Shown here: positions 24,085-55,847 of the stretch, piece after piece
Layout: each line of letters opens with the position of its first letter
How positions within the stretch are numbered: position 1 is the first letter of the stretch
DNA from: Wickerhamiella versatilis
Taxonomy: Eukaryota
DNA: 64,000 nt
Reading direction: 5' to 3'
Assembly (NCBI GenBank): GCA_030867685.1
Contig: JAQOWU010000008.1
Span: 3,472,001 to 3,536,000 of the forward strand
Program-made: the position numbers and the translations under genes
Notes under the pieces: generated by a model
Seen by the model: only the letters and a program-made list of their open reading frames with translations
Databases searched by the model: none
Told to the model about the DNA's origin: nothing

Positions 24085-24169
24085 TCTCACGGGTGTGACT
24101 CGAACACACGATCCTAGGATTACGATGAACCATTACAGTCCTATGCCTTACCAGCTTGGCCACCGTGAG
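24085..24169 (-). tRNA. tRNA-Tyr(GTA) with 12-nt intron (24121-24132)
   Basis: Acceptor CTCACGG/CCGTGAG plus discriminator A (C1-G72, A73), D-arm GCCAAGCTGGTAAGGC, anticodon stem TAGGA/TCCTA with CT-GTA-A, intron after position 37, T-arm GTGTG-TTCGAGT-CACAC, and a downstream T-run terminator. Confidence 0.97.
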
Positions 24170-29057: not shown

Positions 29058-31670
29058 TTAAAGATTGTGCGAAGCTTTTGTCCTACGTAGTCCATGGGCA
29101 TTGTTATAGCGGGAGAGATGGCTCGCCATGGATGTTGTGCTTCGGGCAATAGATGGGCTGCGAGAGAGGATGGCGGGGCTTTTGTCTTGATGTGTGTCAG
29201 GCAAAACTTCTGGAACAGGGGTTTCAGTAGATTCTTGCTCATCATCCGGCAAGAAGCCACCTCTGCGGCGTAGTCCGACTGTTCGTGGGTCGTTAGTGGG
29301 CTTATGAGAAATCTGATGGTCCAAATTGACTTGATAAACAGGGAGTGCAGGGTCAGTGCTGGTGTCATCACGGCGTGGTATAATGAGGGGTATTTCATTG
29401 ATACATCTGGACAGGAAATTGTAGAATTTTGTACAGACTTCGCTGTACAGAACAATATCATCTTGTGAACAACGCGTGTTGGCACAGACAGTGAGAGAGA
29501 TTTTATCGAGATCTGCCTGCTCAGTGATTTGCACAAAGGGTGCCTGCATGAACTGCCGAGGATTCTCATCAATAAACTGACTGATCCGTACGATCAATTC
29601 GTGAATGTCTTGCATTTTTGTCTCAGGTAAACCAAGCGTTAATACAGTAGAAACTTGTGACCCGCCGGAGCGCGACAAGTTATCGATGAAAATAGTATTT
29701 AGAACAGAATTCGAACACTGTCTTATGATATTGGATCCAACCTCGGAAAAAGTAGAGTGCAACAAGGCTATTTTAACGACTTGCATTCTTACATAGCCAG
29801 GCCCGGCTACAGAGATTTTGACCCAGTCACCAACGTCATAAGGATGCTTCACGAACAAGAAAATACAGGAAGTGAAAACTTCACTGGCAGTAGAAGAGAA
29901 TAGGAACGACATACTAAGAATAGTTGAGCCCAGCGTGGCTAGTACGGTCGCACTCGATGGGGCAAGCATACCCACGAAAATGATGATAACTATAATAAGA
30001 CATAAGAATAAGAGCAGGTAATGGAGTTTGGTTATTGCCCCGTCCATATCAACGAGAGATTTTGAGATATCTTTACGCTCTCTACCAATATCTTGCACAC
30101 TTTTTATCATCTCTTCGAGGTCAATGGTAGAGCCACCGTCAATATCGAGAATTTCAAACATGAAGAGGACCTCTTCCTGGCGATCTCGACCAATTGCTTC
30201 AAGCAATTCTTCATAAGATAGACTGTCAGAGTCCTCCATGACCAGGCTTTTCCAGATACGGCATGCTAGTACTTCGGCACAGTGCTTCGACGCCAGCGCA
30301 TCTTTCACAGTTCCAGATATGGATGGCGTTTGCTTGGTCCTCATAATTTGGTTTGTCACGTCGACCGAGTTATGCACCAATTTATTGATAACGTCGAGAG
30401 GCTTAAACTTGGAGGCCATTTTTGCAGTGCGATTCTGTACACTCTGCAACCCGGTAGACTCCAAAATTTCATCCTCTTCTTCGAATTCTTCACACCCATA
30501 AGGGAAGTAATGGTAAGAGAGCCCTAAAAGTACCGTAAGTACCTTAATTGCTTTCTTGCTGCGGGCTATTCGGATTGACATTCTAGCACGGTGGAAACTT
30601 ACAGACAATAAATGGATGAAAACTTGCTCGCAGAAAAATATCAAAGAACTCACCAAAAATGCCACAAGAATATCCTGAATGATCACCTGCCACTTAGGCA
30701 TATTTCCATCATCATCCCTTAAGGCATCCTTATTGTCGTGCAATAATGGCCCAAAGGTGATAAAACTCACGAAAGTCCATACCACCAAAGTCACAGCCAA
30801 TTCTAAAGAAAAGGCGAGATCAACGAACTTGAAATATCTTGGCGCCACAACCGCAATAATAGCAGCTAGAACTTCGGGGAAGTACCGCGCCACCACCCTA
30901 CCAATTAACAGGGAAGCCCAAACAACCTCAAGCCAAATAAATATCCACATGACACGCGTACTACCCAATGTCATATCAGGATTCTGCCACGCTCCCACCG
31001 CTAAGGGAACGAACAAAATTGCAGCGAGAGGAAACCACCAGCAAAAGAGGCGAGTGACCAGCGTTCTTGACATGTAATCTGTGTACAGGCTCTTCAAAAA
31101 ATCTAGGACTTTTGATCCCTGGGCAAAACGACGAATCTTCCTTCGCCGTTCTAGGTTCTGACGGTAACCTTTGCGCCTCGAGGTTGCCGCACTATCATCT
31201 GGTTTGTGCTCAGAGCTCTGACCAGGAGTACCACCAAAGGCAAGATCTGTCGCAGCTTGATCGATACCTAGAGCCTCATCCGACGGATCTTCCTCCAAAA
31301 TTGTATCCAAAATATGAGTGGGATCATCTTTCAGCCGGTCCTCCATTTCCATCTCTTCCTTAACGCTCATATGACTCTTGCCAGATTTGAGAGAGGGCTC
31401 CCCTGGTGGTGCTGCGCCTGATTGACTACGGCGACCAGTAATATGCAAAAGTGACCGAAGACTACCGGCTGATGATTTATGAGAGGTTTGAGAATGACGT
31501 CCACTCATATGAGATCTCGCATCTGTATAAAGACCCTCTTCTGCAGCAGGTCCATCATGGTAGCTTGGGACACCTCTTGGTGAACGGGGAGAGCGGGTGG
31601 CATATATAGACTCTCGGTCACTTCCCGCCGCTGTCTGTGGTGGATGAACATGTTGATCATGGGAACTCAT
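29058..31670 (-). CDS. MscS-like mechanosensitive ion channel (Msy1/Msy2 type) with EF-hand
   Basis: Multiple TM segments, EF-hand DIDGGSTIDLEE, MscS signature SCIFLFVKHPYDVGD, and NSVL...IDNLSRS. Confidence 0.9.
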   Translation of the reverse strand: MSSHDQHVHPPQTAAGSDRESIYATRSPRSPRGVPSYHDGPAAEEGLYTDARSHMSGRHSQTSHKSSAGSLRSLLHITGRRSQSGAAPPGEPSLKSGKSHMSVKEEMEMEDRLKDDPTHILDTILEEDPSDEALGIDQAATDLAFGGTPGQSSEHKPDDSAATSRRKGYRQNLERRRKIRRFAQGSKVLDFLKSLYTDYMSRTLVTRLFCWWFPLAAILFVPLAVGAWQNPDMTLGSTRVMWIFIWLEVVWASLLIGRVVARYFPEVLAAIIAVVAPRYFKFVDLAFSLELAVTLVVWTFVSFITFGPLLHDNKDALRDDDGNMPKWQVIIQDILVAFLVSSLIFFCEQVFIHLLSVSFHRARMSIRIARSKKAIKVLTVLLGLSYHYFPYGCEEFEEEDEILESTGLQSVQNRTAKMASKFKPLDVINKLVHNSVDVTNQIMRTKQTPSISGTVKDALASKHCAEVLACRIWKSLVMEDSDSLSYEELLEAIGRDRQEEVLFMFEILDIDGGSTIDLEEMIKSVQDIGRERKDISKSLVDMDGAITKLHYLLLFLCLIIVIIIFVGMLAPSSATVLATLGSTILSMSFLFSSTASEVFTSCIFLFVKHPYDVGDWVKISVAGPGYVRMQVVKIALLHSTFSEVGSNIIRQCSNSVLNTIFIDNLSRSGGSQVSTVLTLGLPETKMQDIHELIVRISQFIDENPRQFMQAPFVQITEQADLDKISLTVCANTRCSQDDIVLYSEVCTKFYNFLSRCINEIPLIIPRRDDTSTDPALPVYQVNLDHQISHKPTNDPRTVGLRRRGGFLPDDEQESTETPVPEVLPDTHQDKSPAILSRSPSIARSTTSMASHLSRYNNAHGLRRTKASHNL

Positions 31671-31882
31671 GAGCCACTTACGACAAATTAGGTAGTGTCA
31701 CACCCCTTAATTGAGAGATTAAAATGTATGTGTAAGCTAAAGCTTTAGGATGCACCTGACGGGTGATTAGTCCGTCTGACCGAATACGCGTCCTGAGTCA
31801 CGAGGAAAAAAAAGCGTAATCACGTGGGCTGCTCTCAAGCTGTAAGAAAATTGCTGTCAGTAAGTAACCTTGCGACATTATA

Positions 31883-31919
31883 AAATGTATATATTAAGAA
31901 ATGTATATATTAAGAAATG
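31883..31919. repeat. 16-bp tandem duplication AAATGTATATATTAAG (2 copies plus AAATG)
   Basis: Read directly: 31883-31898 is identical to 31899-31914. Confidence 0.9.
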
Positions 31920-32150
31920 GTATGTGGCTTGATTCACTAAAACAAGGTATTTAAGTGCATAATTGAAACCAAATCTATCTATATGGCTTAAATACGTTTA
32001 TATATCGCATACATATTATGCTCAGATACATGTTATGTGTGTGATCCAATCAGATATATGTTACACGGTATGTGGGAGGCGTAGCGTATCACTCACATGA
32101 CGTGCTGACGTCATCTTGTAATCTTTTTTTTTCGCTGAGAAGTCGAGACG

Positions 32151-32261
32151 GTATGTTTTGATCGATGGGGAGGATTATAACCTGTGTCTGAGGATGTATA
32201 TGCAGGACCATTGTGAAATTAGGAATTCTTCGTTTATGACCCAGCGTACTAACTCATCTAG
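32151..32261 (+). other. Spliceosomal intron hosting snR57
   Basis: GTATGT donor at 32151, TACTAAC at 32247-32253, TAG acceptor at 32259-32261. Confidence 0.85.
32166..32243 (+). ncRNA. SNR57: C/D box snoRNA snR57 (18S rRNA 2'-O-methyl guide), intronic
   Basis: Guide AGGAATTCTTCGTT (complementary to 18S AACGAGGAATTCCT) before a variant D box ATGA. Internal CTGAGGA.GTATATGCAGGAC as recalled for yeast snR57. TGGG/CCCA terminal stem. Confidence 0.9.
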
Positions 32262-32272
32262 AATGCTCAAAG

Positions 32273-32392
32273 GTAGGTACCTACCGGAATGATGAATCTT
32301 TCCACAGTTTTTGTTCGGTGAAACCATAATGAGCATAGAACACATTACATGCATCACCATCTGACTGGATCACGGACTACTAACACGTAAAG
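32273..32392 (+). other. Spliceosomal intron hosting snR55
   Basis: AG|GTAGGT donor at 32273, TACTAAC at 32378-32384, probable AAG acceptor at 32390-32392. Confidence 0.75.
32284..32369 (+). ncRNA. SNR55: C/D box snoRNA snR55 (18S rRNA guide), intronic
   Basis: Box C ATGATGA at 32289-32295. Guide CATGCATCACCAT pairs with 18S GUGGUGGUGCAUG with G-U. Box D CTGA at 32361-32364. Confidence 0.9.
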
Positions 32393-32465
32393 CATAACTC
32401 AAAGTAGAATTTCGGGTGGAATTCTCCAGTGCCTTTTGATCACTGGGGTGCTCACGAGGCACTGG

Positions 32466-32560
32466 GTGGCCGCTGATGATACATAAAAATCAGTTCTGCT
32501 TCTGACCCACAAACGTGAAGAGAACTACATACCAAGCTCTTCTTTTATTTCTGAGGCCAC
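32466..32560 (+). ncRNA. SNR61: C/D box snoRNA snR61 (25S rRNA Am guide)
   Basis: GTGGCC/GGCCAC terminal stem, box C TGATGA at 32474, guide CAGTTCTGCTT (complementary to 25S AAGCAGAACTG) before D' CTGA at 32502, C' TGAAGA, D CTGA at 32551. Confidence 0.93.
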
Positions 32561-32725
32561 ACTATATTCAACCCTTAGTGACTGTAACGTATTAATAAAT
32601 GTCTAAAGCTTTTTGGTAGTTGCGGCAAAATATGCCTATTGCGATTATCGCTTATTAGTCACCTATCGGTGCCCACCAACCCACACTTGCGCGGAAACAG
32701 TTGTTTGTTCGGAAAAAATCATCCA

Positions 32726-33673
32726 ATGATGGAACTGGATATCGAATGGGGGGTTGTTTCAGAGATTATGGGCGTGTCATCTGTTGGGATATGGATGTGC
32801 GCGCAAATGCCCCAGGTCCTTGAGAATTGGAAGCTCAAGAGTGTCGATGGCTTATCTGTAGGCTTTTTAATTGCCTGGATAGCTGGAGATATTTCCAACT
32901 TGGCTGGCTGCCTCATGACAGGGCAGCTAGGTGTCCAGACCGTGCTCGCATGTTACTATGTCACGATGGACTTCATCTTATCTTGTCAATTCTACATGTA
33001 CCACAGGCCATCTGACCATGTATCGCTAGAGGACTTCACACCAGTTTATTCGCAACATGATAATTCTAATCGAAAGCGATGGGGTAAGTTTGGAGCTGTA
33101 CGTAGTCGACTTCTGTCCTTTGCCTCCGTCCTATCTGGTTCATCGGCTGCGCCAATCAGACCAAATATGCTTGAATCAAATAGTAGCTTGCAAATTAATT
33201 GGGGATATGTTGTGGCTTACTTCTCCATGGCTATGTATCTTGGGTCGCGTATACCACAGATTTGGCACAACTGGCGACGCCAGTCAACGCAAGGGGTGTC
33301 CATGCTCCTTTTCACTGCAGCTCTGTTGGGAAATTTCACATATACGCTTTCCATTGTTCTCAGCCCTGAAGCACTTGGTCCCAACTCGCGCCAGTTTCTC
33401 CTCAATGAGCTCTCTTATATCCTAGGTGCTGCAGGAACAATGGTATTTGATATTATGATTCTTATACAGTACTATATCTATCAGTATGAGCCAGAGGAGC
33501 TTATGGGTGAACCACTGATTCCAACCCCTGATGATGGCTCTTCTCCCGGCCATCCTAACTCAAGTTCGGATCTCGCTAGGCTCAGGTCAATGTTGCAAGG
33601 CAAGCCTAGTGACAAGTCAAAGCTCATTTTAAGCCATCAGTCTATTTATTCTAGCAATGCTATTATGGATTGA
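32726..33673 (+). CDS. Vacuolar PQ-loop amino-acid transporter (Ypq family)
   Basis: Two PQ loops (WMCAQMPQVLEN..LKSVDGLS and YLGSRIPQIWHN...STQGVS). ATG at 32726 or 32729. Confidence 0.9.
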   Translation: MMELDIEWGVVSEIMGVSSVGIWMCAQMPQVLENWKLKSVDGLSVGFLIAWIAGDISNLAGCLMTGQLGVQTVLACYYVTMDFILSCQFYMYHRPSDHVSLEDFTPVYSQHDNSNRKRWGKFGAVRSRLLSFASVLSGSSAAPIRPNMLESNSSLQINWGYVVAYFSMAMYLGSRIPQIWHNWRRQSTQGVSMLLFTAALLGNFTYTLSIVLSPEALGPNSRQFLLNELSYILGAAGTMVFDIMILIQYYIYQYEPEELMGEPLIPTPDDGSSPGHPNSSSDLARLRSMLQGKPSDKSKLILSHQSIYSSNAIMD

Positions 33674-53812: not shown

Positions 53813-54183
53813 TTCGCCACGTAGCTCTGTTAGCTCTGGATGATCAAACGGGAGACACGCGTGGGTAAGGGTATATATATGTGAATTATTTCGGCTGTGA
53901 ACCAGCTATAAATTGCAGCTACTGAGTACTTCAAAGTGACTCTAAACCGGAAGTCTTTCGTGTGATAAAAACCATTAAAGAGAATCTATCTCAACCCGCG
54001 CTTTCTCGTTTATGACGGTCTTCATAGCTATTATAGTCATTTTTTTGTTTTCGGAGTCATAGTCGCTAGTTCTAGAGTTAAGCGTAAGTTTTCGCAAGTT
54101 CTATTCGAAGCTGACTGGTAAGATACTTGAAACATAGAGGATAGAATACTTATGGCGAACAATGCGGGCATCTTAGTAATCAT

Positions 54184-55847
54184 ATGTTCTCTGCGGCGAA
54201 ATCAGATACGCTTTTCCTCAACGGAGAGCGCATCAGTGGAGATGAGATTCGAAGCCAAAACGTTCTTGCATGCACAGCACTAGCGAACGTTGTTAAGTCT
54301 TCGCTTGGACCAGTTGGTTTGGACAAGTTTCTTGTTGATGATATAGGCGATGTCACCGTCACTAATGACGGCGCTACGATACTTTCGCTACTCGAAGTTC
54401 AACACCCAGCTGGACAAATTTTGGTTAACTTGGCGCAGCAACAGGATCGTGAGGTTGGTGATGGTACAACCTCTGTTGTGATTTTTGCAACAGAGCTCCT
54501 GAGACGGGCCAGTGACTTGGTAAAAACGCATATTCATCCTACCACTATTATTACAGGTTATCGTTTGGCACTTCGTGAGGCTGTTAACTACATGAATAAT
54601 ATTCTTGCTGTTCCAGCTGAGAGTTTGGGAAAGGAAGCATTGGTCAATATCGCGAAGACGTCAATTTCATCAAAAATCATTGGCAGCGATTCAGACTTTT
54701 CAGCAATATGGCTGTAGATGCTATGTTGGCTGTTAAGACGACCGATTCCAGGGGAGTAACAAGATACCCTGTTAAGGCTGTTAATGTCTTAAAAGCAACG
54801 GGAAAATCATCCACCGAAAGCGTCCTTTTACGTGGGTATGCTCTTAATTGTACTATAGCGAGCCAGGCGATGAAGCGTTCGGTAAAAGGCGCTCGCATTG
54901 CTATTCTTGATATGAATCTCCAGAAGGCCAAGATGAGTTTAGGAGTCAATGTCAAAATCGATGATCCCGAACAGTTGGAGGCAATAAGGAAGCATGAACT
55001 TGATATTGTAACAGATCAAGTACAGAAAATCATCAAGTCTGGTGCCAATGTGGTTCTAACAACTAAGGGTATTGATGATCTTTGCCTCAAGCTGTTTGTA
55101 GAGGCAGGCGTTATTGCAGTACGTCGCGCCAAGCGTGAAGACTTGCGAAGGATCGCTAGAGCTACAGGTGCCACAATGGTGACCTCTCTGTCAAATATGA
55201 ATGGCGATGAGGTCTTTGAGTCTACCTCGCTGGGCAATGCCGAAAGTGTGGAGCAGGTGCCCATCGGTGACAACGAATGCATTCTTGTGCGAGGCACCAA
55301 GGTTCACTCAAGCTCCTCGATAATACTTCGTGGCTCAAATGAATTTCAACTAGATGAGATGGAACGCTCTCTTCATGATGCTCTGGCAGTTGTTAAACGG
55401 ACGCTGGAATCAAGCAGTGTGGTACCTGGTGGCGGCGCCGTGGAGACAGCTCTCAGTAATTACCTGGAAACATTCTCCACCACTCTAAGCTCTCGTGAAC
55501 AAGTGGCCATCGCAGAATTTGCAGCGGCATTGCTTATTATTCCCAAAACTTTGACAGTTAATGCTGCAAGAGACTCCAGCGATTTAGTTGCGAAACTTCG
55601 ATCTTACCATGCAGCGGCCCAAACTGCGGAACCTACTGATACGAAGCGTCGGTCATATAAATATTTTGGGCTCGACTTGTTCCAGGGCAAGTGTGTGGAC
55701 CAGATGAAGGCTGGTGTACTAGAGCCAAGCATGAGTAAAGTCAAGTCACTCAAAGCTGCCGTGGAAGCATGCATTGCAATTCTTAGGATTGATACCATGA
55801 TCCAAGTCAACCCAGATCCGCCTCAGGAAGACCCCCATGCCCACTAG
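54184..55847 (+). CDS. TCP1: Chaperonin CCT alpha subunit, split by a one-base frameshift at 54697-54700
   Basis: Two ORFs (54184-54717 and 54708-55847) encode the N- and C-terminal parts ([32 protein letters not shown]). Adding one T restores [10 protein letters not shown]. Confidence 0.95.

Follow-up and report, generated by a model that had tools for sequence, protein, structure and literature searches.

Two spliced snoRNA introns and an exonic snR61 behind a candidate RNase III hairpin in the snR57-snR55-snR61 cluster of Wickerhamiella versatilis

In Wickerhamiella versatilis the snoRNAs snR57, snR55 and snR61 lie in this order on the + strand and share one host RNA. The first two are carried by spliced introns with a micro-exon kept between them, and snR61 is exonic, with a poly(A) end nearby. 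We consider it probable that all three box C/D snoRNAs come from this single polyadenylated RNA (approximately 32120-32607) along two routes, RNase III cutting of a hairpin ahead of snR61 (hairpin 2) being a likely part of the second. The cluster fits the polycistronic-mixed class, with intronic and non-intronic snoRNAs on one precursor and the exonic one last. Mixed intronic/exonic clusters have already been described (PMC12508059, PMC5033589), as has de-intronisation, and the advance is incremental, with all components already known. Positions refer to the window, a stretch of 64,000 nucleotides (GCA_030867685.1, contig JAQOWU010000008.1, 3,472,001 to 3,536,000), and count from its first letter.

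Identity of the snoRNAs and layout of the cluster

The cmscan results placed all three snoRNAs in their Rfam families (Table 1). The scores of snR55 and snR61 were under the gathering score, yet both had E values of about 1e-4 or better and the gene order is conserved. Each guide paired with the rRNA of the same genome, over 16 nt of 18S for snR57, 13 nt of 18S for snR55 and 12 nt of 25S for snR61. In the Rfam alignment the box C of snR57 is a variant and its box D reads ATGA, the boxes being otherwise in place. An earlier sequence-only reading had named the same three snoRNAs, and these matches and guide pairings support the names; its coordinates for the splice signals, micro-exon, GTAGAA, stem and loop all agree with the sequence. 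Upstream of the cluster an AT-rich 16-mer forms a direct repeat (31888-31918, + strand), and RNA run X1 lacked 12 nt there.

Table 1. Features of the snR57-snR55-snR61 host RNA in window coordinates.
Feature	Position	Strand	Details
Exon 1, non-coding host RNA	32120-32150	+	
Intron 1, 111 nt	32151-32261	+	GTATGT 32151, TACTAAC 32247-53, TAG 32259-61; junction reads
snR57, box C/D snoRNA, intronic	32154-32246	+	Rfam RF00474, 60 bits against a gathering cut-off of 50 (cmscan)
Micro-exon, 11 nt	32262-32272	+	present in doubly spliced RNA
Intron 2, 120 nt	32273-32392	+	GTAGGT 32273, TACTAAC 32378-84, AAG 32390-92; junction reads
snR55, box C/D snoRNA, intronic	32284-32367	+	RF00472, 40.4 bits against a cut-off of 50, E 6e-5; cmscan hit 32285-32366
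snR55 boxes	C 32290-95, D 32361-64	+	
Exon 3, terminal	32393-32609	+	holds both hairpins and snR61
GTAGAA, probably the decayed donor of a former third intron	32404-32409	+	
Hairpin 1, 8 bp, GGGU loop	32406-32425	+	predicted pair probability 0.74-0.93 unspliced, 0.84-0.98 spliced
Hairpin 2, 16 bp, two 1x1 mismatches	32426-32465	+	UGGG loop 32444-47
snR61 terminal stem, 6 bp	32466-71/32555-60	+	predicted fold
snR61, box C/D snoRNA, exonic	32469-32557	+	RF00476, 43.3 bits against a cut-off of 45, E 7e-5; cmscan hit 32468-32557
snR61 boxes	C 32474-79, D' 32502-05, D 32551-54	+	
TTCAAC followed by TAG, possibly remnants of a branch point and acceptor	32567-32578	+	fails the branch-point test; chance possible

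Splicing and ends of the host RNA

RNA evidence from four of the 14 runs listed was compared with positions 31600-33100. X9, X12 and X13 supplied raw reads from two studies and X1 supplied contigs from a third. The runs were chosen by species label, and most raw reads were at least 99% identical to the window; splice joints were reported from a floor of 3 reads with 2 different starts. The main 5' end was found at about 32120, with template-switch adapter ends at 32113-32124. The main place had 124 such reads in X12 and 72 in X13; a length difference in a T run moves its listed position by approximately 4.

Intron 1 was spliced out in 2, 38 and 19 reads of X9, X12 and X13, respectively, and intron 2 in 20, 27 and 12 reads as well as in one X1 contig. 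Both introns were removed, with the micro-exon present, in 0, 35 and 15 reads, and no joint that skips the micro-exon was among the listed joints of the four runs. The junctions 32150^32262 and 32272^32393 and the 11-nt exon retained in doubly spliced reads of X12 and X13, all proposed in the sequence-only reading, were therefore seen directly. Both introns are of the U2 type by their GT..AG ends, branch point and removal from RNA, intron 2 in three studies and intron 1 in two. Because singly spliced reads of both kinds occurred, with shorter sides of up to 42 and 58 letters, either intron can go first and the order varies by molecule. Unspliced reads predominated over both introns (73 and 62 skipping reads in X12 against a depth of about 215-260), so splicing may not be the sole route to snR57 and snR55. 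In the spliced molecules these two snoRNAs would mature from debranched lariats by trimming, as in known pathways.

The X1 contigs diverged from the window by approximately 1-2%. Their donor 2 has A at +4, which makes it a consensus donor, and a change in the snR55 guide replaces a G-U pair by a G-C pair against the 18S of the W. versatilis genome. A 5-bp hairpin that could form over donor 2 (32272-32285, + strand) had a z score of -0.96, short of significance, and would be less stable with the X1 allele at 32276.

At the other end of the host RNA, 3' ends were found at 32590, 32597 and 32609, and poly(A) followed 32607 in 3 reads, which places the end 35-55 nt beyond snR61. The 5' end of snR61 was marked by 11 adapter-linked X12 reads at 32468/9, 5 nt ahead of box C; this end comes from one run and lies 3-4 nt off the base of the hairpin, a structure that can halt reverse transcriptase. 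Template switching prefers capped ends, and the same reads could thus point to a promoter of snR61's own with a start at 32469, the hairpin then belonging to an upstream transcript. However, read depth was continuous from exon 1 to snR61, spliced reads ran into exon 3, no 3' ends between snR55 and snR61 were among those listed, and the intronic snR55 showed a similar adapter-linked end (32284, taken from 4 fold-back reads). We find such a promoter barely credible. On the preferred reading, in which snR61 is part of the shared host RNA, its 3' end would be made by trimming from the poly(A) end.

The hairpins of exon 3 and the release of snR61

Since snR61 has no lariat, its 5' end would be released by an Rnt1-type RNase III at hairpin 2. 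This stem had a z score of -4.40, with none of 200 shuffles equally stable. Of 7045 candidates examined over the two strands of the window, 13 qualified as tetraloop stems, 5 of these with NGNN loops, and hairpin 2 ranked first in stability among the 13. The predicted fold gave pair probabilities of 0.92-1.0 in spliced and unspliced RNA alike. The NGNN loop (UGGG in the window and in X9, X12 and X13) sits on 18 stem positions, long enough for the 14/16-nt spacing between loop and cuts that Rnt1 uses (PMC13183374). The predicted cuts fall after 32429 and 32463, within the basal stem of 10 bp, and an exonuclease working 5'-3' would then have 5 nt to remove before the snR61 end at approximately 32469. 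No read ends at 32429 or 32463 were among the ends listed.

The hairpins fold whether or not the introns are removed, and the structure accordingly does not enforce an order of processing. A long hairpin across the exon 2/3 junction was sought by folding, and just a 5+3 bp stem crosses it. Nor does the window hold a long tetraloop stem before snR57 or snR55.

The X1 contigs (contig depth 69) carry one G fewer at 32445, which turns the predicted loop into a UGG triloop and leaves the stem intact. This counts against a strict NGNN requirement, and it weakens the standing of hairpin 2 as a G2-loop substrate, not its working as an Rnt1-like site. Together with the lack of cut ends among those listed, the variant favours a route in which snR61 is exonic and RNase III is dispensable: a decapped, spliced host RNA would be trimmed 5'-3' to the snoRNP, or another endonuclease would act, and the hairpin would be a helper or incidental. 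There are precedents in the maturation of S. pombe snoU14 without Pac1 (PMC12508059) and in certain S. cerevisiae C/D snoRNAs whose 5' ends are made by trimming alone (PMC5934358). On the other side, hairpin 2 outranks every other qualifying tetraloop stem of the window and stands at the exact Rnt1 distance from snR61, Rnt1 also cleaves some triloops in vitro (PMC4334505), and so strong a stem would be expected to impede plain trimming. We judge the RNase III-free route unlikely, and continue to favour cutting at hairpin 2.

A second stem, hairpin 1, was absent from the sequence-only reading. It had a z score of -1.8 and pairs 4 of the 6 bases of GTAGAA, and it is too short to be cut by itself. 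GTAGAA lies 11 nt past acceptor 2, which mirrors the position of donor 2 relative to acceptor 1. When exon 2 with donor 2 was compared with the GTAGAA segment, only 9 of 5000 random 17-mers scored as high, and 71 of 5000 did so for the exon part alone, although exon ends in AAAG are frequent ahead of donors in the W. versatilis genome. The distance from GTAGAA to box C is 70 nt, 60 of which are filled by the hairpins, against 8 nt for snR57 and 17 nt for snR55.

A putative intron 3 showed no donor match, no branch-point match and no listed RNA joint. A weak third intron could nevertheless be active, running from GTAGAA at 32404 or from donor 2 to TAG 32578, so that snR61 would come from a lariat after all. 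The donor-like GTAGAA 11 nt past an acceptor and the TTCAAC..TAG beyond box D are in keeping with this, and the last exon past 32578 would measure just 12-30 nt, which makes its joints hard to call. In contrast, no joint from 32404 or spanning snR61 was listed in the four runs, at a depth of about 180-300 in three read sets; the branch point has no match and the donor is predicted to be paired; and the reads of poly(A) libraries that start at the snR61 5' end fit a molecule extending to the poly(A) site. We regard an active third intron as very unlikely and treat snR61 as exonic.

The main structural claims of the sequence-only reading for this region held up. The UGGG-capped stem lies directly 5' of snR61, the likeness of the two post-acceptor segments exceeds most of what chance gives, and the TACTAAC said to be missing after snR61 is indeed missing, the sole two + strand copies in 64 kb serving introns 1 and 2. 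Its placing of snR61 outside a functional third intron agrees with the listed joints, within the detection limit set by the short downstream exon. Its Rnt1-type hairpin stands as to stability, loop and cut geometry; cleavage by RNase III itself did not appear as cut ends among those listed.

RNase III genes and classical Rnt1 places

The genome search found three genes with an RNase III domain in W. versatilis. Two of them (415 and 439 aa) had yeast RNase IIIs including Rnt1 as their best PDB matches (5t16, 4oog; E 1.7e-32 and 4.3e-28), over an alignment that covers the nuclease domain and one dsRBD and includes the dsRBD helix-1 region. Helix 1 reads NAKTELYRK and NAKAELYAL here vs NAKRQLYSL in Rnt1. 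The Rnt1-like paralogues lie at L002:1135-2382 (- strand) and L003:850-2169 (+ strand), in the G000 C1:688538 and C3:668146 regions, the second with the altered signature ERLEYKGD.

The classical places of Rnt1 action include rRNA and U4 (PMC3579876) and U5 (PMC4334505). In W. versatilis the 25S 3' end carries a GGGG-capped stem (z -2.98; L168:1545-1605, - strand) and the U5 3' extension a GGGU-capped stem (z -2.79; L140:1601-1660, + strand). The U4 3' extension showed no NGNN loop and folds with GUUU and UCGA loops, so that NGNN stems were present at two of the three places examined. The NGNN loops found, UGGG of hairpin 2 among them, were all G-rich and none was AGNN. Judged from these loop sequences and from helix 1, the RNase III of W. 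versatilis may possibly have a shifted loop preference. The two paralogues and the 25S and U5 stems favour RNase III cutting at hairpin 2; the U4 loops, the changed helix 1 and the weaker binding of UGNN than of AGNN by the S. cerevisiae enzyme (PMC13183374) speak against it.

Metagenome loci and the history of the third intron

A pattern scan of metagenomes returned at least 119 loci, 81 of which lacked the snR55 motif in the available sequence; one duplicate was dropped and 37 snR55-snR61 loci remained, near-identical ones being kept separate. A donor stood ahead of snR61 in 34 of these 37 listed loci, and in 30 it was accompanied by a branch point and acceptor after snR61, vs 115 of 1850 shuffled sequences; the window has neither signal. 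Intron signals round snR61 at this frequency suggest that an intronic snR61 is ancestral. The ancestral cluster would have had three introns, the third donor decaying to GTAGAA in the W. versatilis lineage, with 60 nt of hairpin now lying between the relic donor and snR61 and the branch point gone; this would have happened separately from the loss in Saccharomycetaceae.

Both signals were missing from three of the 37 loci (L055, L060 and L033). L055 and L060 are intron-less three-gene clusters, and the Saccharomyces-like L060 showed no stable local hairpin ahead of snR61 (z +1.56). L033 (657-1100, - strand), on an AT-rich yeast-like contig, has a donor and TACTAAC round snR55, whereas its snR61 is exonic and follows a stem with an AGUC loop (z -2.07 and -1.75), with no snR57 within 700 nt upstream; from its sequence it is possibly a second mixed cluster II. 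L024 (395-830, + strand) presents the reverse mix, with a short empty intron at the place of snR57, an snR55 without nearby splice signals, and snR61 between GTATGT and TACTAAC.

A single-gene tree of Aha1 was built from 32 of 120 listed proteins, picked by name or closeness. W. versatilis grouped weakly with Trichomonascus and Nadsonia (83/74). Komagataella, Saccharomycopsis, Pachysolen and the CTG yeasts formed a clade (100/99) that excluded it; the tree had no Saccharomycetaceae row. The Saccharomycetaceae fall within that clade.

The sequence-only reading had called the cluster an intermediate state of de-intronisation. As a description of its structure this stands; as a stage on the path of S. 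cerevisiae it does not agree with the tree, with the introns of Candida or with the positions of the S. cerevisiae loops. A surviving stage of S. cerevisiae's own de-intronisation would entail a homologous hairpin and a common history, for which the identical gene order and the decay of splice signals described in Saccharomycotina (cited in PMC3596301 and PMC4202332) can be named. Besides the Aha1 position, Candida keeps all three introns, with nested splicing (PMC5033589). For S. cerevisiae, tables S1 and S7 of PMC4334505 list Rnt1 loops at snR57 and snR55 and none at snR61, whose best loop scores 0.62 and which is not a known substrate there, though it is raised in rnt1 cells. The absence of a stable hairpin at L060 also speaks against it, and we hold a shared history to be highly improbable. 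Tree position, Candida introns and loop positions together argue for a separate loss of the last intron, and the W. versatilis state is most simply a separate, single-intron loss and not a stage toward S. cerevisiae.

A fuller reading joins these observations, and we put it forward tentatively, as possible but rather doubtful. The RNase III site would have arisen in intron 3 between donor and snoRNA, the small second hairpin would have hidden the donor, and the splice signals would then have decayed; L033 would be a separate, similar swap, donor 2 would be drifting among strains now, and the RNase III of the lineage would read G-rich loops (UGGG, GGGG, GGGU and even the UGG triloop) instead of AGNN.

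Comparison with known clusters

Cluster II is intronic in most fungi and unspliced in S. cerevisiae and its kin, and in other hemiascomycetes "most" of it is intronic (PMC3596301); Y. lipolytica has a single exonic snoRNA, left unnamed in PMC5033589. The clusters of Candida, Debaryomyces and Yarrowia have the same snoRNAs in the same order on a non-coding spliced host with tiny internal exons (PMC3596301; PMC5033589). In those clusters all three snoRNAs are intronic (stated for Candida), exons are of zero, one-base or negative size, and splicing is ordered, nested or recursive, whereas W. versatilis has a true 11-nt exon, both splicing orders, two introns and an exonic snR61. The S. cerevisiae polycistron shares the order and the exonic snR61, and its reliance on RNase III is established (PMC3596301), where that of W. 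versatilis would follow from the hairpin. It is intron-less with loops at snR57 and snR55, whereas the sole long loop of W. versatilis precedes snR61 (PMC4334505).

The closest parallels in arrangement are S. pombe snR107/snoU14 (mamRNA) and human SNHG25, in which one or more intronic snoRNAs are followed by an exonic one freed by an RNase III hairpin (PMC12508059); the same source gives this intronic-then-exonic polarity for 10 of 12 mixed clusters surveyed. The mamRNA/SNHG25 hairpin bridges two exons and can form only once splicing has joined them (PMC12508059). In contrast, all of hairpin 2 belongs to exon 3, at 33 nt from the acceptor, and it folds in spliced and unspliced RNA. It resembles the engineered S. 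pombe "constitutive stem" mutants, which trapped some intronic snoRNA (PMC12508059). A natural mixed cluster with a constitutive hairpin, a design mis-processed when engineered in S. pombe, would therefore test the need for an enforced order.

Candida cluster I is also a budding-yeast polycistron that mixes intronic and exonic C/D snoRNAs, although a different cluster, and the available portion of PMC5033589 gave no description of an RNase III hairpin for it. Rnt1 processing of C/D 5' leaders proceeds in the way proposed here, with a stem-loop cut 14/16 nt from the loop and subsequent trimming; the loop consensus in those leaders is AGNN, against UGGG at hairpin 2 and GGGG/GGGU at 25S and U5 (PMC5934358; PMC13183374). 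In the literature at hand we found no cluster II in which snR57 and snR55 are intronic while snR61 is exonic and preceded by an RNase III hairpin; Mitrovich et al. 2010, or the figures or supplements of Luo et al. 2013, may show a partly intronic cluster II.

De-intronisation has so far been proposed from end states, fully intronic vs fully exonic clusters. At this native locus only one of the three snoRNAs has switched, and donor and loop vary by strain, which makes direct tests possible. The locus lets one ask whether an RNase III site renders an intron dispensable.

Other introns and snoRNAs in the window and genome

The two confirmed introns had been described as the only clear ones in 64 kb. 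At the level of consensus signals this agrees with our scan, the reads having covered 31600-33100 alone. A relaxed intron scan of the window gave 20 candidates including the two confirmed introns; three others are alternative upstream donors to acceptor 1 with no listed joint, and none of the remainder was convincing by eye.

Elsewhere in the genome snR38 lies in an intron directly ahead of an open reading frame, and two further predicted introns carry an snR190-like RNA and U14, respectively (L013:1480-1770, - strand; G000 C8:758137-758403). The first acceptor and second donor of the snR190-U14 pair share one G, giving a nested arrangement with an exon of negative size, and U14 has a variant box C. 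As the sequence places U14 in an intron just as it does snR190, the last snoRNA of a cluster is not exonic by rule in W. versatilis. Searches for clusters I and III in the genome gave no match over the cut-off for RF01181 and none for RF01185, blanks that do not prove absence.

The donor-plus-box-C pattern gave 24 matches vs 12 in the control, and cmscan on 20 of the 24 returned a weak snR52-like hit as the sole name. Further intronic C/D snoRNAs are probable on L145, L153, L155, L160, L147 and L165, near position 1500 in each; within this set Rfam named snR13 and snR38, and L160 is the weakly snR52-like one. An H/ACA RNA of the snR30/U17 type lies at L011:865-1140 on the - strand (Afu_309 47 bits, SNORA73).

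In the window, a tRNA-Tyr with GUA anticodon and an intron lies at 24085-24169 on the - strand. The TCP-1/CCT chaperonin gene (54184-55847, + strand) is split into two overlapping open reading frames (Pfam 1-140 and 144-487), and the frameshift at a T run (approximately 54697-54701) is probably an assembly error in a homopolymer. Just ahead of its start, GTAAGT, GCTGAC and AAG/TAG (54084-54137, + strand) could mark a short 5' UTR intron.
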